In this document: positions 21,397 through 63,084 of the stretch, one piece after another
Layout: every line of letters starts with the position of its first letter
Numbering within the stretch: the first letter of the stretch is position 1
Assembly (NCBI GenBank): GCA_030647355.1
Contig: JAUSIS010000006.1
Coordinates: 26,221-90,220 of the forward strand
DNA length: 64,000 nt
From: a bacterium
Lineage (GTDB): Bacteria > Patescibacteriota > UBA1384 > VFKW01
Reading direction: 5' to 3'
Translations under genes and position numbers: made by a program
The notes under the pieces: model-generated
Databases searched by the model: none
The model's input: only the letters and a program-made list of their open reading frames with translations
What the model was told of the DNA's origin: nothing

Positions 21397-21470
21397 TCGG
21401 GGCAGGCAGACTTGAACTGCCGACCTCTGGACCCCCAGCCCAGCGCACTAGCCAACTGTGCTATGCCCCG
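21397..21470 (-). tRNA. tRNA-Pro (anticodon GGG)
   Basis: Manual cloverleaf on the minus strand: acceptor CGGGGCA/TGCCCCG, D stem GCAC/GTGC, anticodon stem CTGGG/TCCAG, loop CUGGGGG, T stem GGCAG/CTGCC, T loop TTCAAGT. 74 nt, no encoded CCA. Confidence 0.8.
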
Positions 21471-21482
21471 TTGAGTAAAAGT

Positions 21483-21540
21483 TGAGCGTACTAGCCTCCG
21501 CCTCCGCAGCTGGCGGATGTGCTATGCCCTGCAAGGTTTT
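21483..21540. repeat. Degenerate copy of repeat family F2 (CCGCC-N4-GGCGG hairpin module)
   Basis: CTCCGCCTCCGCAGCTGGCGGATGTGCTATGCCC resembles the inner hairpin and 3' part of F2 copy 61125-61240 and the 41-nt palindromic insert in topA/recR. Confidence 0.45.
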
Positions 21541-24798: not shown

Positions 24799-24821
24799 GC
24801 CGCCTTAGCTCAGTGGTAGAG
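24799..24821 (+). pseudogene. 5' fragment (acceptor + D arm) of a second tRNA-Thr copy
   Basis: GCCGCCTTAGCTCAGTGGTAGAG is identical to nt 1-23 of the intact tRNA-Thr at 24875, followed by CCCTCACC. Confidence 0.7.
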
Positions 24822-24874
24822 TCCCTCACCTTTTAATCTTACAAGTCATAAGGTTAGAGTTCTTCACAGGATAA

Positions 24875-24946
24875 GCCGCCTTAGCTCAGTGGTAGAGCAA
24901 CACTTTTGTAAAGTGAAGGTCCCGAGTCCGAATCTCGGAGGCGGCT
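24875..24946 (+). tRNA. tRNA-Thr (anticodon UGU). T-loop is unusual (TCCGAAT, C at position 55).
   Basis: Manual cloverleaf: acceptor GCCGCCT/AGGCGGC, D stem GCTC/GAGC, anticodon loop UUUGUAA, T stem CCGAG/CTCGG. Confidence 0.7.
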
Positions 24947-24962
24947 CTGAAAGGTGAGGGAT

Positions 24963-25001
24963 AAAGTGAAGGTCCCGAGTTCGAACCCCGGAGGCGGCTC
25001 T
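24963..25001 (+). pseudogene. 3' fragment (anticodon 3' strand, variable and T arms, acceptor 3' strand) of a second tRNA-Thr copy, with canonical TTCGAAC T-loop
   Basis: AAAGTGAAGGTCCCGAGTTCGAACCCCGGAGGCGGCTCT, preceded by GGTGAGGG, the inverted partner of the CCCTCACC that follows the 5' fragment. Confidence 0.7.
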
Positions 25002-25169
25002 GGTGAGGGGTAAATAGTAGATCGTAGGTTCAAATATTTCCATTGTCTTTGCTGATGAGATTATAGGGTTCAAGTCGCTTCTTTCGGCTTAAAATCGTAA
25101 ATTGAAGCCAACAGCGAACCAATTAACTGAGTATTGTTGTATGTTCGCTATTGGCAGTAGCTTAAGATA

Positions 25170-25673: not shown

Positions 25674-25880
25674 AGAAAAGGTGAGGGACGATTCCTACAG
25701 CTCCTGCCAACAATGTGAGGGATGACTTCTTCCGCTCTTGTGAAATTAAGGGAAATTTTTCTATTATTTCTCTGGTCAGGAATTATATATAATAATCCCG
25801 ACAGCGCTAGTTAAGTTGTTATTTGACAAAGAAATTGTGCTTGATATAATTTATTTGTATTTGAACTATTAGGAGGGGTT

Positions 25881-33752: not shown

Positions 33753-33769
33753 GTGTAGGGGAGGGGATT

Positions 33770-34110
33770 GCTTTGTCGCTTCGCTCCTCGCAATGACAGA
33801 GAACTGCTGTTCGCAGTGACACGGAAAGTGGAGAAGATTGCCGCGCTTCGCTCGCAATGACAGGAAAGTAAGATTGCCGCGCTACGCTCGCAATGACAGA
33901 AGGGAGATTGCTTCGGACGACACTCGCAATGACAAAGGAAGCTTCTCGCAATGACAAAGGAGAGATTGCTTCGGACGACGCTCGCAATGACACGGAAAGT
34001 GGAGAAGATTGCCGCGCTGCGCTCGTAATGACATAAGCACACTCGCGATGTTCGTCAGAAAGATTGCTTCGTCGCTACGCTCCTCGCAATGACACGGAAA
34101 AAACGCTGGT
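33770..34110. repeat. Cluster of ~7 hairpin repeat units (GATTGC-N12-17-GCAATGACA), the last one a long perfect palindrome
   Basis: Repeated GATTGCCGCGCT(T/A)CGCTCGCAATGACA and GATTGCTTCGGACGAC(A/G)CTCGCAATGACA units separated by 6-12 nt. 34067-34130 forms a ~28-bp inverted repeat. Confidence 0.85.
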
Positions 34111-34148
34111 CATTGCGAGCGAACAGCGAAGCAATCTATAATGGAAAT

Positions 34149-34445
34149 ATGAAAGATAAAAATTATTACGTATATTTTATGATGAATTTCAGTAATACGG
34201 TTATTTATGTGGGAGTAACTAATGATTTAGCGAGAAGAGTTTACGAGCACAAAAATAAGCTTATTGATGGGTTTACTAAAAAATATAATGTAAATAAACT
34301 TGTGTATTATGAAGAGTATGATGATCCGCTGATCGCAATCGCCAGAGAAAAACAGATAAAAGCTGGATCGAGGGATAAAAAGATGAGGTTGATTGCGAAA
34401 GATAATCCAAGGTTTGAAGATTTGTACGATGGTTTGTTTGGTTGA
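34149..34445 (+). CDS. GIY-YIG domain nuclease family protein (~98 aa)
   Basis: YYVYFMMNFSNTVIYVGVTNDLARRVYEHK is a canonical GIY-YIG core. The ORF opens at 34089 inside the repeat; the Met at 34149 is the likely start. Flanked on both sides by the hairpin repeats. Confidence 0.8.
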   Translation: MKDKNYYVYFMMNFSNTVIYVGVTNDLARRVYEHKNKLIDGFTKKYNVNKLVYYEEYDDPLIAIAREKQIKAGSRDKKMRLIAKDNPRFEDLYDGLFG

Positions 34446-34446
34446 G

Positions 34447-34605
34447 AAAGAAGATTGCCGCGCTTCGCTCGCAATGACAGAGGGGAGATTGCTTCGGACG
34501 ACACTCGCAATGACAAAGGAAGCTTCTCGCAATGACAAAGGAGAGATTGCTTCGGACGACACTCGCAATGACAGAAATAGTGCTTGCGATGACGAAGGAA
34601 AGGTA
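34447..34605. repeat. Second cluster of GATTGC..GCAATGACA hairpin repeats (4-5 units)
   Basis: Same units as 33770-34110, starting immediately after the GIY-YIG stop codon. Confidence 0.85.
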
Positions 34606-35465: not shown

Positions 35466-35590
35466 AGGTTACTTCTCGACTTTGCTCAAAGAATAATGCC
35501 AGGCAGTAAGAAATAAACTGGGACAGGGAAAGATTGCCACGCTACGCTCGCAATGACACAGAAATAGTACTCGCAATGACAAGGAGGGGA
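35466..35590. repeat. Composite intergenic repeat: ACTTCTCGAC.. motif + GCAGTAAGAAATAAACTG motif + two GATTGC..GCAATGACA hairpin units
   Basis: Each module recurs elsewhere in the window (31140-31300, 49424-49460, 33770-34110). Confidence 0.7.
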
Positions 35591-36791: not shown

Positions 36792-37922
36792 ATGGGTGGG
36801 AATTATAAAGAATTGAGTGTTTGGCAAAAGAGCGTGGAGCTGGTGAATGATGTTTATTTACTGACACGTAAATTTCCTAGTGAAGATAAATTTGGTATTG
36901 CACAGCAGATGGAGAGGGCGTCAGTGTCTATCCCTTCGAATATTGCCGAAGGACATCGTAGACAGCATAAAAATGAGTATGTACAGTTTTTACATATAGC
37001 TTTAGCTTCTGCTTCGGAGTTGGAAACTCAGCTAGAAATATGTAGGAGGTTTGACCATTTGAAGAGTTATAAATTTGAAGCGATTGGTGACCGACTTGAG
37101 GAGATAATAAAAATGTTGCATGGCTTAATAAAAGCAGTTAAATCTACTCATACCTGTGATCTGAAACCTCATGCCTCCAGGGGGTATACCTTGGTGGAGA
37201 TACTGGTTGCGTCCACGATATTTGTCAGCGTGGTTGGAATGGGAATTGCTACGTATTCTTCTGCCAGCGGTTTTCAGTCCAAATCGGCGGTTATTCGAGA
37301 GACCAACCAGGCGGCTCGCTATGCGATGGATACGATTGTCAGAGATATAAGGTTAGCTGATAGTTCGGTTGCTTACACAAAGACCATAGGCCCGGATGAT
37401 TATGTATATACTTTTAAGGGGTTTGCTTTTGAGCAAGCTGGCGGAGGTTTAGATACTACCAATAATTCACTTACACAATATACAGGGATAAAGGTTTATC
37501 GGAAAGGAAGTGGTGATTGCAAGGATTTTGTTCAGGAAGTTTATTATTGGATACAATCAAATACGATATCTCAGCAAATCTCCTATTATAATCATACAAA
37601 CGCGAGTGATAAGGATAGTCCAGCTGATTATAATAGTCCTGTTTCCCTTTTATCTGGTTGCACGGTCTCTTCGGCAGCCATACTGTCCGATAGAGTACAG
37701 CTTAGGGTTGATCCAGTGACCAGTGTTACTCAGGCTTTTTTTCAGGGTCAGTCGGCGTTTGATGTGGAAAAGAATAGCGCTCCGTTTTCGATTGCAAATT
37801 TAGCGCCATACCTCAAAGCATCAATGGATGTAGTGCCGATTCATAGTGCCCTTAGTCCTGGAGAAGAAAGTAGGACCATTCATCTTGAGACGACGGTGAC
37901 ACCGCGATTAGTATCATTTTAA
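36792..37922 (+). CDS. Chimeric ORF: N-terminal four-helix-bundle (TIGR02436 / '23S rRNA intervening-sequence protein') domain fused in frame to a PilW-like minor pilin
   Basis: aa 1-115 (LSVWQKSVELVNDVYLLTRKFPSEDKFGIAQQMERASVSIPSNIAEG..ELETQL) match the four-helix-bundle family. From aa ~125, RG|YTLVEILVASTIFVSVVG is a prepilin N-terminus. An internal Met (MLHGLIKAV.., nt ~37110) could be an alternative pilin start. Confidence 0.6.
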   Translation: MGGNYKELSVWQKSVELVNDVYLLTRKFPSEDKFGIAQQMERASVSIPSNIAEGHRRQHKNEYVQFLHIALASASELETQLEICRRFDHLKSYKFEAIGDRLEEIIKMLHGLIKAVKSTHTCDLKPHASRGYTLVEILVASTIFVSVVGMGIATYSSASGFQSKSAVIRETNQAARYAMDTIVRDIRLADSSVAYTKTIGPDDYVYTFKGFAFEQAGGGLDTTNNSLTQYTGIKVYRKGSGDCKDFVQEVYYWIQSNTISQQISYYNHTNASDKDSPADYNSPVSLLSGCTVSSAAILSDRVQLRVDPVTSVTQAFFQGQSAFDVEKNSAPFSIANLAPYLKASMDVVPIHSALSPGEESRTIHLETTVTPRLVSF

Positions 37923-38919: not shown

Positions 38920-39110
38920 AGATTGCTTCGTCGCTACGCTCCTCGCAATGACACAGGAAAGTAAGATTGCCGCGCTACGCTCGCAATGACGAAGGAAGCT
39001 CCTCGCAATGACACAGGAAAGTAAGATTGCCGCGCTACGCTCGCAATGACAGGAAAGTAAGATTGCCACGCTTCGCTCGCAATGACACAGGAATGAGCTC
39101 GCAACGACAA
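38920..39110. repeat. Tandem array of ~36-nt GATTGC..GCAATGACA(GGAAAGTAA) hairpin repeats (4-5 units)
   Basis: GATTGCCGCGCTACGCTCGCAATGACAGGAAAGTAA repeated head-to-tail with minor variants. Same family as 33770-34605 and 35530-35590. Confidence 0.85.
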
Positions 39111-39138
39111 GGAAGGGGTTATATTAGGGAGATAGAAT

Positions 39139-48857: not shown

Positions 48858-48870
48858 GTAATTACGCGGT

Positions 48871-48965
48871 CTTATCCTCTTCGGGGAGCGTTACGCTTCC
48901 TCGGCTTGAGGCCGATGAGCGCTGCACTACGCTTAACTCCCCTTAGAAGACAAGACCGCGTTATA
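48871..48965. repeat. Repeat family F2, copy 1 (structured ~75-nt element)
   Basis: CGCGGTCTT..CTTCGGGGAGCGTTACGCTTCC-[hairpin CTCGGCTTGAGGCCGATGAG]-CGCTGCACTACGCTTAACTCCCC..AAGACCGCG. Paralogues at 54047 and 61125. Confidence 0.8.
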
Positions 48966-49498: not shown

Positions 49499-49811
49499 GT
49501 TCCCTCCATTACCTCCTTAACCTCCTTTAGGATTTTACGAGGCCCTAAAATATTTAAATTGTAGTCTCGTGTTAAGGTGTAATAGAGAGAATTATCGTGA
49601 TAAGGACGAAAACTCAGGAGGGGTAGAGTTTTCATACTCTTACCACGATAATTCCCACTACTACAGATAAATTATTAATTTTCAGCTCGATGTACTATTG
49701 TAGCATAAAAACAGGCGTTTGTCAAGGGGGTAAGAGAAAAAATTATGGTATACCACGATTAAATAAGGGAGGGGAATTGATAAATAGCGTTTGGCTTGTT
49801 AAGATTTATTT

Positions 49812-50962: not shown

Positions 50963-53248
50963 ATGTCTAAATCCTTGGTTATAGTCGAAAGTCCGGCTAA
51001 AGCAAAGACAATTGAGAAATACTTAGGGAGCGGCTATAAAGTGCTGGCTTCTTTTGGTCATGTCAGGGATCTGCCTAAGAGTAAGTTGGGTGTTGATGTT
51101 AAGAAGAATTTTGAGCCAACATATATTGTGCCAACTAAAGCCAAGAAGGTATTGGCGAGTTTGAAAAGCGAGGCGGAAAAATCGGAAAAAATTTATCTGG
51201 CAACAGACTTTGACCGGGAAGGCGAAGCGATTGCTTGGCATATAATGCAAGCCACCGGCTCGCAAACTCAAAGCTCAATCCGCCAGCTGGCGGACAAAAC
51301 TCAAAAATATGGGAGGGTAACTTTCCATGAGATTACAAAGGAGGCAATTGTGCAAGCGTTTGAGCACCCACGCGAGATTGATATGGATTTAGTGGACGCT
51401 CAACAAGCCCGCAGAGTGCTTGATCGGCTCGTTGGCTATAAATTGAGCCCATTTCTTTGGAGAAAGGTGTATACGGGGCTCTCTGCGGGCAGAGTGCAGT
51501 CTGTAGCAGTGCGTTTGGTGGTAGATAGGGAGAGGGAAATAGAAGCTTTTAAGGTGCGGGAGTATTGGACTATTGAAGCGATTTTTTCCAAGAAACCGGA
51601 CAAGATTAAATTTGGCGCAACTTTAACTAAAATAGACGACAAACCTTTCAAGGAGGTGGATCAGAAGAAATTGGCGGAAGATCTGGTTAAGGATATTGAA
51701 GGGGGCAAATATAGCATTCTAGATATACAGAAAGCTGCTAAGACGAGAAGCCCAGCGCCGCCGTTTTCTACTTCAACATTACAACAGGAAGCAAATAGAA
51801 AGTTGCGTTTTTCAGCTAAGCAAACCATGACTTTAGCCCAGCATCTGTATGAGGGTGTAGACCTTGGAAGCGAGGGGTCTGCCGGATTGATTACGTATAT
51901 GAGAACGGATTCATATAATCTAGCCGAGAGCGCAATTCGTGAAGCTCGTCAGGTAATAGGTAAGGAGTTTGGTAAGGAATATGTGCCGCAGTCATCCAGA
52001 TTATATAAAACAAAAGCAAAGGGTGCTCAAGAAGCACATGAGGCGATTAGGCCTACTTTATTTAGCAGGACTCCGGACAGTGTGAGGAAATTTTTAGATA
52101 GTAGTCATTACAAACTTTATAAATTAATTTGGGAACGGGCGATTGCGTCCCAGATGGCAGATGCCCAAGTTGAAGAGACGGTAGCACAGATTGAGTCAAA
52201 AGGGGCTAGTAAGGTGTATGTCTTTACAGCCAAAGGAGCTATTGTCACTTTTGCCGGATTTTTAAAGGTGCATGAGGAAGGCAGGGATGAGATAGAAGAG
52301 GATGGCCTGTCTTTACTGCCTGATTTGGAGGTAGGAGAATCAGTGCATTTGGAAAATGTCGATGGAAGACAGCATTTTACTCAGCCACCGGGGCGATATA
52401 CGGAAGCTACTTTGGTGAAAGAGTTGGAGAAGAGGGGAATCGGCAGACCGTCAACTTATGCGCCTATTATGAGTACTATTGTTGATCGAGGTTATGTCCA
52501 AAAGTTAGAGGGCAGGTTTCATCCGCAGGATGTGGGACTTGTGGTTACAGATTTACTGACCGAGCATTTCCCGGCTATTGTTGACTATCAGTTTACCGCT
52601 AAAATGGAGGAAGAACTTGATGATATTGCAGAGGGTAAGCTGAAATGGCAGCCGGTGGTCAAAGAATTTTATGAACCATTGGCAAAAACTCTTGATGAAA
52701 AAATGGAGACAGTTGAGAAAAAGGATATAACCGAGGAAAAGACTGATGAAAAATGTCCTGAATGTAAGAAGGATTTGGTTATAAAACTTGGGCGTTTTGG
52801 GAAGTTTTATGCCTGTTCAGGTTACCCAGAATGTGAATATACACGGCCATATCTGGAGAACGAAGAGGGCGAAGCAATGTCGGCAAAAGAGGTTAAGGAG
52901 CTGACTGATGAAAAATGTCCAAAATGCGGGGCTCAGTTAGCGGTAAAACAGGGGAGATTTGGCAAGTTTTTAGGATGCAGTGAATATCCCAAGTGTCACT
53001 TTACTAAACAGATTGGAGCAGGGGAGCCAGTTAAATGTACAGAATGCGCCGGAGAGATAGTTATGAAGCGCACCAGGAGAGGGAAGCCATTTTGGGGGTG
53101 CTCAAACTATCCAAAATGCACACTAGCCTTCTGGAACGAACCTGTTGATAAAAGATGTCCAAAATGCAAGGCGATTATGGTAAAATCCGGGAAGGATAAG
53201 GTTAAATGCAGTAAGTGCGAGTATGAAGAGACTGCAAATAGCAGTTAG
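50963..53248 (+). CDS. topA: DNA topoisomerase I with four C-terminal zinc ribbons
   Basis: TOPRIM (LVIVESPAKAKTI, DFDREGEAIAW), Tyr-containing domain III, four CxxC..CxxC ribbons at the C-terminus. Start at the ATG at 50963 behind AGGAGGA. Carries the 41-nt palindromic insert at 51262-51305 in frame. Confidence 0.9.
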   Translation: MSKSLVIVESPAKAKTIEKYLGSGYKVLASFGHVRDLPKSKLGVDVKKNFEPTYIVPTKAKKVLASLKSEAEKSEKIYLATDFDREGEAIAWHIMQATGSQTQSSIRQLADKTQKYGRVTFHEITKEAIVQAFEHPREIDMDLVDAQQARRVLDRLVGYKLSPFLWRKVYTGLSAGRVQSVAVRLVVDREREIEAFKVREYWTIEAIFSKKPDKIKFGATLTKIDDKPFKEVDQKKLAEDLVKDIEGGKYSILDIQKAAKTRSPAPPFSTSTLQQEANRKLRFSAKQTMTLAQHLYEGVDLGSEGSAGLITYMRTDSYNLAESAIREARQVIGKEFGKEYVPQSSRLYKTKAKGAQEAHEAIRPTLFSRTPDSVRKFLDSSHYKLYKLIWERAIASQMADAQVEETVAQIESKGASKVYVFTAKGAIVTFAGFLKVHEEGRDEIEEDGLSLLPDLEVGESVHLENVDGRQHFTQPPGRYTEATLVKELEKRGIGRPSTYAPIMSTIVDRGYVQKLEGRFHPQDVGLVVTDLLTEHFPAIVDYQFTAKMEEELDDIAEGKLKWQPVVKEFYEPLAKTLDEKMETVEKKDITEEKTDEKCPECKKDLVIKLGRFGKFYACSGYPECEYTRPYLENEEGEAMSAKEVKELTDEKCPKCGAQLAVKQGRFGKFLGCSEYPKCHFTKQIGAGEPVKCTECAGEIVMKRTRRGKPFWGCSNYPKCTLAFWNEPVDKRCPKCKAIMVKSGKDKVKCSKCEYEETANSS

Positions 53249-53255
53249 ATACCCT

Positions 53256-53366
53256 TCTTTTAAGGCACGTGTTCGTCCGCTCCAGCGGCGGACGCCACTC
53301 TCTCTCGACTAGTGACCCGCATCTGCGGGACCAAGCTCACTGCGTCTGCGAGAGGTCTTAAAGAAG
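53256..53366. repeat. Repeat family F1, copy a (structured ~100-nt element)
   Basis: CACGTGTTC-[GTCCGCTCCAGCGGCGGAC]-GCCACTCTCTCTCGAC-[..CCCGCATCTGCGGG..]CCAAGCTCACTGCGTCTGCGAGAGGTC, flanked by the inverted repeats TTCTTTTAAG/CTTAAAGAAG. Confidence 0.8.
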
Positions 53367-53410
53367 AATATCTAACTGCTAATAAGGTGAAAAAAGAAGG
53401 AAGAGAAAAG

Positions 53411-54046
53411 ATGGCGGGGAGTATTCCTAAATCAGTACGAGATTTAATTGAAGAATTTGGTAAGCTGCCTGGGATAGGTCCAAAAACAGCTAGCCGGCTA
53501 ACTTTCTATTTATTAACAAAACCTGAGGAGGACGTGGAACGGTTGGCGAAATCGGTTGACGGTCTTAAGAAGAATCTGATTATTTGCTCTGAATGTTATA
53601 ATATCGCCGAAAGTGATCCATGCTCTATTTGTGGCGATCAAGCAAGAGAGAAAGAAAAGGTATGCGTAGTAGAGGAACCCTTGGATGTAGTGGCGATAGA
53701 GAAAACGGGGTTTGATGGCAGATATCATGTTTTGGGCGGGGTGATCTCTCCGATAAACGGAATTGGTCCGGAGAACCTTCGAATGGCAGAATTATTCAAT
53801 CGTATAAAAGGCAAGGGTGTGAAAGAGGTTATTTTGGCGACCGATCCTTCCTTAGAAGGTGAGGCCACCGCTATGTATATAAGCAACTATGTTGCTAAAT
53901 TCAAATCTCAATCCGCCAGCTGGCGGACAAATCTCAAAAATTTAAAAGTTACTAGAATTGCCCGCGGTTTACCTGTGGGAGGGGATTTGGAATATGCAGA
54001 TGAAATGACTTTGACGAGGGCATTGGAGGGAAGGAAAGAGTACTGA
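53411..54046 (+). CDS. recR: Recombination protein RecR
   Basis: HhH (LPGIGPKTASRL), C4 zinc finger (CSECYN..CSIC), Toprim domain, C-terminal GLPVGGDLEYAD. The annotated ORF start at 53312 only translates the F1 repeat; the Met at 53411 is the real start. Carries the second copy of the 41-nt insert (53903-53946). Confidence 0.85.
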   Translation: MAGSIPKSVRDLIEEFGKLPGIGPKTASRLTFYLLTKPEEDVERLAKSVDGLKKNLIICSECYNIAESDPCSICGDQAREKEKVCVVEEPLDVVAIEKTGFDGRYHVLGGVISPINGIGPENLRMAELFNRIKGKGVKEVILATDPSLEGEATAMYISNYVAKFKSQSASWRTNLKNLKVTRIARGLPVGGDLEYADEMTLTRALEGRKEY

Positions 54047-54150
54047 TTATGGGGGGAACATTTATTCGGAGAGCGTTTCGCTTCCCGATACAGTTGTGTC
54101 GGGAGCACTGCACTTCGCTTAACTCTCCTCATAAAAATTCCCCTCGTTAT
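54047..54150. repeat. Repeat family F2, copy 2
   Basis: GGGGGGAA..TTCGGAGAGCGTTTCGCTTCC-[CGATACAGTTGTGTCGGG]-AGCACTGCACTTCGCTTAACTCTCC..TTCCCCTC. Confidence 0.8.
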
Positions 54151-54508: not shown

Positions 54509-54516
54509 GTTAGGTA

Positions 54517-54637
54517 GGCTGTTTGTCATCATGACACGCGTTCATCCGTTCCAGCGACGGGATGCCGCTCTATCTCGGCAGTTGACCCTTCGGAACCAAG
54601 CTCAACTGCCTCCGATAGGTCACTATGACAAACAGCC
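54517..54637. repeat. Repeat family F1, copy b, flanked by the 13-bp inverted repeat GGCTGTTTGTCAT/ATGACAAACAGCC
   Basis: CACGCGTTC-[ATCCGTTCCAGCGACGGGAT]-GCCGCTCTATCTCGGC-[..]CCAAGCTCAACTGCCTCCGATAGGTC. Confidence 0.8.
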
Positions 54638-54717
54638 TTCCCAAAGATGGAGAAGTAGCATTTTGGTCTGCGAGAGACTTTTTAGTCTGACAAGTCATTT
54701 CTTAGAGAGAAGAGGCA

Positions 54718-58513: not shown

Positions 58514-58811
58514 CAACAACTAGCCCAGCTTCGGCTGAGGCGGTGAAGGGGAGGAGGTCTTAATTCCTCCCCTTCACACTGACTTTCTTGAAGATGAATT
58601 TGGTTAATTCTATATAGGATTAACGAAATGCATCTTTTAGAATCATCTAGGAGATGAGAGTGGGTCTATCGTCAAATACCATTTTGGCTGCAAATTGACA
58701 TTACGGTCTGCAAATTCACAAAAGCTCCTTAGCTTATCTACTATTGATAAACTTCGTCCCTTTTGCAAATTTTCGACTGCGTACTGAACAATTTTCGCTT
58801 CAAAAGCGTAT

Positions 58812-59483
58812 TTGACGATAGACCCAAGTAATATAACTGGAGGTTATATGACCAAACTACATTATGGGGGGATTGCCCTAGGTCTGGTGCTAGCTTTGTC
58901 CGTGGCAAACGTGGCATTAGCGAGCACGTCTTCGACCAGCTCTACTTCTGCATCAGGTGGGTCGAGCGCAGTAGTGGTCTCCGGCAATAGTGCCGGTGCG
59001 ACCTCGGAGCATAGTGAAACTTCTGGTACAAGCGGTACCAGCGGAAGCGGTACTTCAACTACCACTTCCAACACTCCTCCCAGCCAGCCTAGTTCGGGTG
59101 GAACAAGTTCAACTTCTTCTACCAGTGCATCTGGCGGATCGAGTGCTGCGGTAGTATCTGGTAATGGTGCTGCTGCTACGTCAGAACATTCCGAGACTTC
59201 TGGATCAAGCGGATCCAGTTCAGGTAGTTCTTCGAGTTCTACTCCTAGCTCTACCTCGAGTACTTCGTCTTCGGGTGGTTCTAGCGCAGCTGTCGCTACT
59301 TCTACTCCTAAAACTACGCCCACAAAAACCGTAGTTACAACTACCGAAACGGCTTCTGGAACATTGCCTCAAGCCGGTGCTTCAGTAGCATTCCCTGCAT
59401 TACTCGCTGTTCTAAGCGGTGCGGCAGGTATCTATTGGAAGCAAAAAGGAGCTGGTGGATTTATCCTAAATCCTAAGTTCTAA
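58812..59483 (+). CDS. Ser/Thr/Gly-rich cell-surface protein with a C-terminal sortase-type sorting signal (LPQAG + TM + KQKG)
   Basis: Signal peptide. Two internal ~55-aa repeats (SSTSSTSASGGSSA(V/A)VVSGN..ATSEHSETSG). C-terminus GTLPQAGASVAFPALLAVLSGAAGIYWKQKG. Confidence 0.55.
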   Translation: MTIDPSNITGGYMTKLHYGGIALGLVLALSVANVALASTSSTSSTSASGGSSAVVVSGNSAGATSEHSETSGTSGTSGSGTSTTTSNTPPSQPSSGGTSSTSSTSASGGSSAAVVSGNGAAATSEHSETSGSSGSSSGSSSSSTPSSTSSTSSSGGSSAAVATSTPKTTPTKTVVTTTETASGTLPQAGASVAFPALLAVLSGAAGIYWKQKGAGGFILNPKF

Positions 59484-60621: not shown

Positions 60622-60633
60622 TCGCAATATCTT

Positions 60634-60769
60634 CGCCTTTCGAAGCACGCGTTCAATTTTTCCAGCGAAAATTGCCGCTCTATCTCGGCTCGCAACCCAG
60701 CCCTTTTTACAAAAGAGCTGGGACCAAGCTTGCTTCACCTCCGATAGGCATCTCAATGGAAGATATTGC
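60634..60769. repeat. Repeat family F1, copy c, flanked by the 11-bp inverted repeat GCAATATCTTC/GAAGATATTGC
   Basis: CACGCGTTC-[AATTTTTCCAGCGAAAATT]-GCCGCTCTATCTCGGC-[..CCCAGCCC.TTT.AGAGCTGGG..]ACCAAGCTTGCTTCACCTCCGATAGGC. Confidence 0.8.
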
Positions 60770-61124: not shown

Positions 61125-61240
61125 CTCGGCGATGAGGGTATAAGCTATTCGGGAAGCGTTTCTCCGCCATCCGCCAATCGGCGGAGGCGGATGCACTACG
61201 CTTAACTTCCCTCATAGCACATACCCTCATCTTAATTGCT
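61125..61240. repeat. Repeat family F2, copy 3, closed by the perfect 11-bp helix GATGAGGGTAT/ATACCCTCATC
   Basis: ..TTCGGGAAGCGTTTCTCCGCCATCCGCCAATCGGCGGAGGCGGATGCACTACGCTTAACTTCCCTCATAGCAC.. Confidence 0.8.
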
Positions 61241-61833: not shown

Positions 61834-61987
61834 TAAGGTGTAATTTTAATATGTGGGACCCCGCTCTTTCTAAGCTTGAAAATCTATCCGGCTGTTTATG
61901 GCTAAGTGGTAAATAAGCTGGCGTGGATTATTTGAGTTTTGAAAGGGCGGGGGTTAGTACCACTGCCCGAATGGGCAAGGAGTAATA

Positions 61988-62866
61988 ATGCCAAAGAAGA
62001 AACAGGTTAAAGAGGAGCAGGACAATCCTGTCGTAGAAGTTGAAGAAGAAGCATTAGTTGATTCGGAAGAGGACAGAGAAGAAGAGAAAAACTTGGGAAT
62101 AGATGACACTGACGAAAATTTACAGGAGGAGACTCAAATAAAAAAAGTAGTAGGGGATGTAGCGGGACTACCTTCTGAGGTGGCTGCTATTAATACTGAT
62201 AATGAGACTGCCCGAGAGGCAACTAAAAAAGTTCAAGGGACAACGAATAAAAATAAATCGAGAAGCAAAAGATACATTACCGCTGTTAGTAAGGTTGATA
62301 AAAATAAGAAATACACGATTGACGAAGCTATAGAATTAGCAAAAGAAACTTCGAGTACGAAGTTTGAAGGATCGGTTGAGTTGCATGTAAAACTATCCGA
62401 GAAAAAAAGCAAGAAAAAAGGAACTGATGAATTGGCTCGAGGGATTTTGCATCTACCGCATGGAATGGGGAAAGAGCTGAAAGTTATTGTCTTAGACGAA
62501 AACAAGATCGAAGAAATTGCTAAAACAAAGAAAGTTGATTTTGATGTGGCGATAGCTACTCCCGCTTTGATGCCTAAAATGGGTAAGATCGCCAAGATTT
62601 TAGGTCCAAAAGGAAAAATGCCAAATCCAAAGACCGGGACTGTGAGTGATGATCCCGAGAAAGTAAAAGAAGAAATTAAGAATGGTAAGGTAGAATATAA
62701 GGTAGATGCTAATAATGTTGTTCACCAGATGATCGGAAAGACCAGTTGGGATAGTATAAAACTCAAAGAGAATTTTCAAGTAGTGATGCAGGCGTTGCCT
62801 AAAAATAGAGTGCAATCTGTCGCTCTTTCGACGACGATGGGACCGGGGATTAAAGTAGAGTACTAA
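61988..62866 (+). CDS. rplA: 50S ribosomal protein L1 with ~90-aa acidic/lysine-rich N-terminal extension
   Basis: From residue ~95: KRYITAVSKVDKNKKYTIDEAIELAKE..FEGSVELHVKL..PHG...KVIV is the uL1 core. The N-terminus is EEE/KK low complexity. Confidence 0.8.
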   Translation: MPKKKQVKEEQDNPVVEVEEEALVDSEEDREEEKNLGIDDTDENLQEETQIKKVVGDVAGLPSEVAAINTDNETAREATKKVQGTTNKNKSRSKRYITAVSKVDKNKKYTIDEAIELAKETSSTKFEGSVELHVKLSEKKSKKKGTDELARGILHLPHGMGKELKVIVLDENKIEEIAKTKKVDFDVAIATPALMPKMGKIAKILGPKGKMPNPKTGTVSDDPEKVKEEIKNGKVEYKVDANNVVHQMIGKTSWDSIKLKENFQVVMQALPKNRVQSVALSTTMGPGIKVEY

Positions 62867-62867
62867 T

Positions 62868-63000
62868 TCAAGAGTATATCTTTCAAAGACACGCGTTCGT
62901 CCGCTCCTGCGGCGGATGCCGCTCGCCCTCGGATTCCTTTCGCCTTCGGCGAACCAAGCAAGAAATCCTGCGAGAGGTCTTCTCAAAACATACTCTTGAA
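62868..63000. repeat. Repeat family F1, copy d, flanked by the inverted repeat TTCAAGAGTAT/ATACTCTTGAA
   Basis: ACACGCGTTC-[GTCCGCTCCTGCGGCGGAT]-GCCGCTCGCCCTCGGA-[TTCCTTTCGCCTTCGGCGAA]-CCAAGCAAGAAATCCTGCGAGAGGTC. Confidence 0.8.
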
Positions 63001-63084
63001 TTCAAAGAGAGAGTGGAAAAGGGTAACAAAAAAATAGTTTGTAGGTACTTTAAGTAGTAGTTGGTTTTTCCATTAGAGTTTTTG

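Follow-up and report, generated by a model that had tools for sequence, protein, structure and literature searches.

F1, a three-way-junction repeat with copy-specific outer stems at gene ends of a Patescibacteriota genome, and its reading as an inserted palindromic repeat

Four copies of a repeat that we call F1 stand on the + strand at gene ends in the window—the whole 64-kb stretch of DNA analysed here—at 53239–53381 (c1), 54516–54638 (c2), 60624–60769 (c3) and 62865–63002 (c4). With a probability of roughly 55%, we take F1 to be a palindromic repeat restricted to one lineage, which was inserted and now forms part of operon mRNAs; by analogy, and with the same degree of confidence, it would be akin in kind to RPE, Correia/NEMIS, ERIC and BOX rather than an ancient conserved regulatory RNA. 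We read it so because two of its sites are empty in the syntenic relative L133, because a sister family, F2, has the same build, because one F2 copy is an insert within tgt, and because the private stems of these elements appear to lie within the inserted block.

The F1 copies and their common fold

Copy c1 follows topA; its core (53262–53359) scores 109.8 bits with the covariance model described below and the element folds with a z-score of −7.8. Its outer perfect arms, TAGCAGTTAGATA (53239–53251) and TATCTAACTGCTA (53369–53381), combine with a second helix segment, TTCTTTTAAG (53254–53266) and CTTAAAGAA (53355–53366), into a helix of about 25 bp spanning the topA stop codon: the TAG at 53246–53248 lies inside the 5′ arm, which encodes the last two codons of topA and the stop. 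Copy c2 starts 7 nt past the stop codon of a 69-aa Zn-ribbon gene (core 54531–54623, 90.9 bits, z = −7.1); its outer perfect arms are AGGCTGTTTGTCAT (54516–54529) and ATGACAAACAGCCT (54625–54638), imperfect pairing extends outward to 54510–54644, and its sequence was confirmed as identical in an independent Logan assembly. Copy c3 starts 2 nt past the prfB stop codon (core 60642–60752, 95.7 bits, z = −4.8) and is bounded by the perfect arms GCAATATCTTC (60624–60634) and GAAGATATTGC (60759–60769); position 60634, which the first-pass annotation had given as the start of this copy, is the end of its 5′ arm. It is peculiar by a P3 helix altered to AATTTT/AAAATT and by a long P6. Copy c4 follows rplA, opposite a convergent 124-aa gene (core 62886–62981, 94.3 bits, z = −5.6); the first of its outer perfect arms, AATTCAAGAGTAT (62865–62877) and ATACTCTTGAATT (62990–63002), covers the final two bases of the rplA stop, and its sequence is identical in the Logan contig L119.

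Measured from the last base of the preceding stop codon, the 5′ arms begin between 7 nt upstream (c1) and 7 nt downstream (c2). The copies are 123–146 bp long, with no open frame consistent across the four. It had been noted from the start that four + strand copies adjoin gene ends between flanking inverted repeats of 10–13 bp: all four are present, and the repeats are exact and even slightly longer (11–14 bp). Besides, a fragment GGTCTGCGAGAGAC at 54668–54682, 30 nt downstream of c2, has 10 nt in common with the conserved F1 3′ end of c1, and could be an F1 remnant or a chance match.

According to RNAalifold and pair counts, the F1 core is a G+C-rich three-way junction of 93–111 nt (G+C 0.51–0.63 vs 0.42 for the window). 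The description as a three-hairpin element, with which the analysis began, was right about a structured element, but the three-way junction describes it better. Its arms are the closing helix P1, the P2–P3 hairpin and the P4–P5–P6 arm. P2 is GCG/CGC (GTG/CAC in c1), followed by a UU bulge and by a P3 of 6–7 bp with the loop UCCAGCG; P4 is CUCUC/GAGAG or CUAUC/GAUAG, followed by a small internal loop, P5 and a variable P6, and P6 is separated from the 3′ strand of P5 by a conserved bulge of 7 nt, ACCAAGC.

Core pairing is found in 95.4% of the cells over the four copies and drops to 32–50% when the partners are slid by 1–3 columns; 16 of the 27 core pairs are changed on both sides, and none of 500 shuffles matches the observed values. 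Therefore the structure of the F1 core is real and maintained, and the idea that the fold is kept through compensatory change stands on firm ground as far as the core is concerned. The four full elements fold with z-scores of −4.8 to −7.8 (0/200 shuffles equally stable), and in the window as a whole 38 inverted repeats are perfect over 10 bp or more within 200 nt, vs 5–11 in its shuffles. The minus strand of F1 folds equally well or better than the plus strand, so that folding energy does not settle the strand of the element; the main argument for the + strand is the shared orientation with the genes.

A covariance model was built on the four F1 cores and the window was scanned with filters off. 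The model gives the four copies 91–110 bits and finds no further F1 match in the 64-kb window and the next 8.9 kb of the same genome (73 kb in total); this last part comes from contig L119, which is identical to the window over a 3,354-nt overlap.

The copies resemble each other by layers. Pairwise identity is 74–86% at the unpaired positions of the core and 50–70% at the paired ones; the mid segments beside the core are 58–73% identical among c1, c3 and c4; the outermost arms, of 11–14 nt, are similar only at the level of shuffled sequences (at most 7 matches, P = 0.95). These outer arms are nevertheless perfect, Watson-Crick in 51 of 51 pairs with no G-U. In c1 and c2, arm, mid segment and inner helix make a near-continuous helix of about 20–27 bp, c2 having no mid layer, so that its private stem adjoins a short inner helix; in c3 and c4 the long helix is broken by an internal loop, 7x6 and 8x8 respectively. 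The mid layer of c1 is particular: its 5′ part is homologous to the 5′ mid of c3 and c4, while its 3′ part differs from theirs and is the exact complement of the c1 5′ mid. Such a pattern is what a single re-templating event would produce. No source for any arm was found elsewhere in the 73 kb.

The sister family F2 and the empty sites of a relative

F2 comprises five copies, three in the window and two just beyond it, on L119. Its core, ..GGRRAGCGTTTC-hairpin-TGCACTACGCTTAACTYYCC.., is unlike that of F1, but the build is the same: the inner helix covaries, the mid layer pairs imperfectly and the outer helix is private to each copy, being perfect over 10–13 bp in four of the five. On the + strand of the window, the first copy (48861–48964) lies between nusG and rplK, with perfect arms at 48864–48873 and 48952–48961; the second (54051–54145), between recR and the Zn-ribbon gene, has an imperfect outer helix with G-U pairs; the third (61131–61231), between ybaB and pth, has perfect arms at 61131–61141 and 61221–61231. 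Four of the five start 3–6 nt past a stop codon, and for F1 and F2 together a stop codon lies at the start or within 7 nt of it in 8 of 9 elements. The two families alternate in one 17-kb stretch, and neither occurs in the remaining 56 kb of sequence.

Beyond the window, F2-4 (L119 3977–4055) sits between the rplL stop codon and a canonical terminator, and is therefore a passenger of the 3′ UTR, not the terminator itself; without arms and core, its flanks amount to 25 nt, vs 26 nt in L133. F2-5 (L119 5063–5162) lies in frame within tgt. It corresponds to an in-frame insert of 36 aa (L119 5057–5164, window-equivalent 65703–65810), about 1.7 kb past the window end, at a loop of Tgt and with no counterpart in the Tgt of L133, and its 12-bp perfect arms fall within the inserted block. 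Judging from these alignments, the private stem would thus arrive with the element, and would be neither a host terminator nor a native target. We consider F2-5 as the strongest single evidence that the architecture common to F1 and F2 is that of an insertion; it also suggests that an F2-type element can be tolerated as translated sequence. After rplL as well as in tgt, the inserted block appears to include the private stems.

In L133 the gene order prfB-ybaB-pth-rplA-...-rplJ-rplL-tgt is kept, with Tgt 71% and Pth about 51% identical to those of this genome (a search with Pth found a nearest relative ~52% identical). Spacers of 65, 82 and 90 nt in L133 stand against 197, 145 and 218 nt in the window, and the prfB-ybaB and rplA sites of L133 are short, empty spacers. 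The 12.6 kb of L133 contain no F1 match, and long-range perfect repeats of 11 bp or more are lacking there as well; no F1 was found in the related loci L121, L122, L123 and L134. From the likeness with F2 and from the empty sites of this distant relative we infer that F1 probably arrived through insertion.

Outside this genome, the searches returned nothing that belongs to F1. Rfam has no match to any F1 copy, nor to F2, at the gathering score or with E up to 10. The exact pattern of the F1 5′ half has no match in the JGI metagenomes; that of the 3′ half has nine, all in one conserved G+C-rich coding gene and worth 11–12 bits with the model, i.e. chance. IMG/VR gave no match for both F1 halves and for F2, and phage and plasmid collections (blastn) no F1 match. 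A 19-base pattern used on species-representative genomes was too loose, yielding single chance matches only, in high-G+C genomes (the noise of L001–L080). A 602-aa concatenation of the open frames across the four F1 cores matched nothing when used as a query, and the 124-aa protein beside c4 (locus tag Q7S37_01690) matches only itself. The breaks of Logan contigs at c3 and F2-2, considered as a sign of twin copies, are not interpretable. An ancient, widely conserved RNA family is not supported by the data.

The first-pass annotation saw in the variable closing helix a classic covariation of a functional RNA. For the outer arms this is not supported: they are unlike each other at shuffle level beside mid segments 58–73% identical, they are purely Watson-Crick, F1 is missing from the relative at two orthologous sites and from the collections searched, and the unrelated F2 has the same private stems, including on its in-frame copy in tgt. 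The alternative offered at the same time, a stem derived from the target as in MITEs, fares no better, since no significant target duplication was found and since, at the two F2 sites for which the relative allows a comparison, the arms seem to belong to the inserted block. More generally, F1 is small, non-coding and multi-copy like a MITE, but it cannot be filed as one, because its terminal repeats differ between copies and no target duplication accompanies them. The arms are unrelated (P = 0.95) and only the inner imperfect helix is common to the copies; the flanks of seven elements, compared by local alignment with 500 shuffles each, give p = 0.2–1.0, and matching 2-nt flanks occur in only 2–3 of 9 elements. 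A Pfam scan of 20 ORFs of the window yielded neither a transposase nor a RAYT.

The window holds further repeats, some of which share a module with these elements. A hairpin TCCGC..GCGGA is common to P3 of F1 (c1 and c4), to F2-3 and to a palindrome of topA and recR (7 matches vs 0.12 expected). This palindrome, TCCGCCAGCTGGCGGA, is perfect and belongs to a 45-nt repeat found at 51264–51308 (topA) and 53897–53941 (recR), 93% identical and in frame in both ORFs. The inverted repeats at 51407, 51910 and 34882 (topA and a prepilin peptidase gene), considered as inserts, read as ordinary coding sequence. In the rplA leader (61859–61953), a hairpin GGGACCCCG/CGGGGGTT carries about 80 extra nt where L133 (2603–2625) has a 6-nt loop; read on the + strand, this addition folds into a long stem that includes several G-U pairs. 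Two spacers hold single-copy inverted repeats whose content is unlike F1 and F2, one of 19 bp perfect around 128 nt (58661–58826), the other of 11 bp perfect around 44 nt (49578–49665). Arrays of a 36-nt hairpin repeat, AAGATTGCCGCGCTTCGCTCGCAATGACA, lie at 33760–34520, 35500–35590 and 38920–39125, between type IV pilin-like genes, and in the ORF 36792–37922 a domain of the type ‘23S rRNA intervening sequence protein’ (PF05635, E = 1e-37) occurs together with a methylation motif of the pilin N-terminal kind.

Repeats also surround some tRNA genes. The tRNA-Thr(tgt) at 24875–24947 is enclosed in a perfect 12-bp helix (24822–24833 / 24950–24961), itself flanked, in the region 24801–25003, by copies of the 5′ part (23 nt) and the 3′ part (41 nt) of this tRNA; it looks as if a tRNA-bearing hairpin had replaced the anticodon arm of an older copy. 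The 12-mer AAAGGTGAGGGA of this helix (24950–24961) recurs at 25677–25688, so that it lies just downstream of both tRNA-Thr and tRNA-Trp, and related GTGAGGG motifs are found at 25003 and 25716. At 21440–21530, the 5′ end of a tRNA-Pro (minus strand) is doubled (TGTGCTATGCCC) around a 48-nt insert with the palindrome TCCGCAGCTGGCGGA.

Origin and possible role of the elements

Each copy can be seen as a block of three layers: outermost a perfect stem of its own, then (except in c2) a mid part that is partly conserved and pairs imperfectly, and innermost the conserved three-way-junction core. If F1 is an inserted repeat, this block would have been inserted at or just past the gene end and then carried on the operon transcript. 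The private stems would be made, or kept, perfect by a templating at the DNA level, a fold-back or template-switch synthesis copying one arm into the other. Such a re-templating is our best guess for the origin of these stems, rather than a slow covariation at the RNA level, as it would explain both the all-Watson-Crick arms and the mid helix of c1. The tgt and rplL cases, and the lack of any arm source in the 73 kb, speak against a copying of the native flank. Once in an mRNA, F1 would form a long clamped stem-loop, possibly a 3′ stability or processing structure like REP, ERIC or Correia; by analogy with these, a role at the RNA level is possible, most likely as a by-product.

Some observations temper the insertion reading. 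Conserved unpaired bases, compensatory pairs and positions near stop codons would also fit a selection for RNA function; the argument bears on four F1 copies, none of them inside a gene, in the 73 kb examined of a contig of at least 326 kb, and the relative used for comparison is distant (Tgt 71%, Pth ~51%). The lack of a transposase among the scanned ORFs, of a target duplication and of an arm source in the 73 kb also weighs against this reading. Should the copies have the age that their cores suggest, active maintenance would be needed to keep the arms perfect.

The main competitor, unlikely in our opinion, takes F1 for a cis-acting RNA module under selection in operon mRNAs, whose core would bind a factor or resist exonucleases. 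The clamp (~20–27 bp in c1 and c2) would isolate the folding of the core, or would be an RNase III-type site separating the cistrons and leaving a protective 3′ hairpin, and the stems would differ because any pairing sequence suffices. The conserved structure with its compensatory changes, and the conserved nucleotides of junction and bulge, are what such a module would show; however F1 is missing from the syntenic relative as from all the collections searched, and folding is equal or better on the minus strand. Every copy runs in the direction of the genes and starts at a stop codon or no more than 7 nt from one, with no promoter in front and no T-run behind, and F2-4 lies upstream of a canonical terminator, inside a 3′ UTR; but private stems are also present on the F2 copy translated in tgt, where a cleavage would destroy the mRNA. 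That the stems are perfect although the cores diverged implies maintenance; at the opposite, the absence of G-U among 51 arm pairs, the abrupt drop of identity at the arm boundary, and the internal loops of c3 (7x6) and c4 (8x8), which interrupt the long helix, are hardly in line with a selected clamp. Precedents for RNase processing do exist: Correia RNA is cut by RNase III, and ERIC at 3′ ends alters the decay of the upstream mRNA (PMC10969869). Inserted repeats can gain such roles (Correia, ERIC; PMC10969869), and the two views are compatible.

A bolder form of the insertion reading, which we put forward tentatively and think rather improbable, is that F1 and F2 are undescribed mobile hairpin elements, the insertion itself giving each copy its private perfect terminal stem of 10–14 bp. 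A variable 5′ tail could, e.g., serve for fold-back priming; neither conserved terminal repeats nor a target duplication would be involved, and the insertion would place the copy at or just past the end of an ORF or in frame within it.

It is more doubtful that the F1 core was inserted in the loop of a pre-existing hairpin, a terminator or an mRNA-end stem, so that the private stems would be old host structures. When the conserved part is removed, stems of 11–14 bp with loops of 4–6 nt are indeed left in 4/4 copies, and this genome has many perfect short-loop hairpins after its genes; those that are unoccupied, though, are mostly terminator types with A-run and T-run (22623, 49469, 59495 and others), and runs of this kind are lacking in the occupied stems. 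The hairpin of the rplA leader, with its 6-nt loop in L133 and ~80 extra nt in the window, is a further point in its favour; but F2-5 has its stem within coding sequence, at a place where a 24-bp palindrome would not fit in the relative, and the rplL spacer agrees in length with that of the relative only when the arms are included in the insert. The dissimilarity between unoccupied hairpins and occupied stems, together with the tgt and rplL cases, thus disfavours this origin.

We give still less credit to the idea that the F1 copies are paralogous genes of small stable RNAs, freed from operon transcripts by cleavage of a processing stem as are rRNAs and some tRNAs. Neither an own promoter, nor an Rfam relative, nor a copy in the syntenic relative or elsewhere searched was found, and the sister family F2 is able to sit in an ORF; in its favour are a tRNA-like conservation—invariant junction nucleotides with variable stems—, a G+C content high for this genome, and the tRNA-Thr of the window, likewise enclosed by a 12-bp perfect helix. 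Finally, F1 is very improbable as an intrinsic terminator or attenuator: although it follows genes, and c4 lies between convergent ones, the scan calls no terminator at any copy, no T-run follows any of them (ATAAGG, TCCCAA, TCTTTA and CAAAGA come after the 3′ arms), and the genome has canonical terminators at other places, among them one that directly follows an F2 copy.

If the reading of F1 as an inserted repeat is true, small structured repeats have spread here to 3′ UTRs and even to the gene of a conserved enzyme, each copy with a private perfect stem that the rules of transposons, shared terminal repeats and target duplication, do not explain. This would call for caution in the discovery of RNA motifs, as apparent covariation and a variable closing helix can come from hairpin processes at the DNA level in selfish repeats. 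If on the other hand the elements are processed in the mRNA, they would constitute a compact natural ‘insulated’ intercistronic module.

Comparison with known systems

Among bacterial interspersed repeats, where different families cluster, nest and share modules (PMC10969869), a close parallel is offered by the Rickettsia palindromic elements (RPE): palindromic elements of about 100–150 bp forming stable hairpins, distributed in several families in a small genome, with no known transposase, and located between genes or in frame inside ORFs (PMC10969869). F1 and F2 are like them in size, folding and number of families, and F2-5 in tgt behaves as an in-frame RPE; unlike them, F1 has no sequence relation to RPE, and none of its four copies was seen inside an ORF. 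We know of no report of RPE copies with copy-specific perfect outer stems.

Like Correia/NEMIS of Neisseria and ERIC of enterobacteria, F1 is intergenic, hairpin-forming and carried on the operon transcript. The terminal inverted repeats of these elements are conserved between copies, and Correia also has a TA duplication, whereas the terminal stems of F1 are unrelated between copies and no duplication was found. With the RAYT-mobilised REP/REPIN, F1 shares the nature of structure-dependent extragenic palindromes placed after genes and clustered or nested (BIME-like), and the small TCCGC..GCGGA hairpin of F1, F2 and the coding palindromes is REP-like. A REP sequence measures 20–40 nt, its 5′ tetranucleotide is conserved and it goes with a cognate RAYT gene; F1 is by contrast a three-way junction of 93–111 nt, with no RAYT among the 20 window ORFs scanned.

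Integron attC sites (RYYYAAC ... GTTRRRY) have conserved outer sites and a variable centre; F1 is the reverse, a conserved centre with variable ends, and attC-like heptamers occur only in c1, in the wrong order. The intervening sequences (IVS) of bacterial 23S rRNA are extra stem-loops of about 100 nt or more at a helix tip, removed by RNase III. The rplA-leader hairpin and the nested tRNA-Thr of the window share this geometry of an insert at a helix tip, but IVS are in rRNA while F1, known here from sequence, lies in mRNA spacers.

As for the stems themselves, template switching is a documented source of perfect stems during replication, made or repaired in one event (PMC8794818). It differs from F1 in being a mutational process and not an element, and it requires a nearby template, when no arm source was found in the 73 kb; it nevertheless fits, as in quasipalindromes, both the re-templated mid helix of c1 and the arms that are all Watson-Crick.
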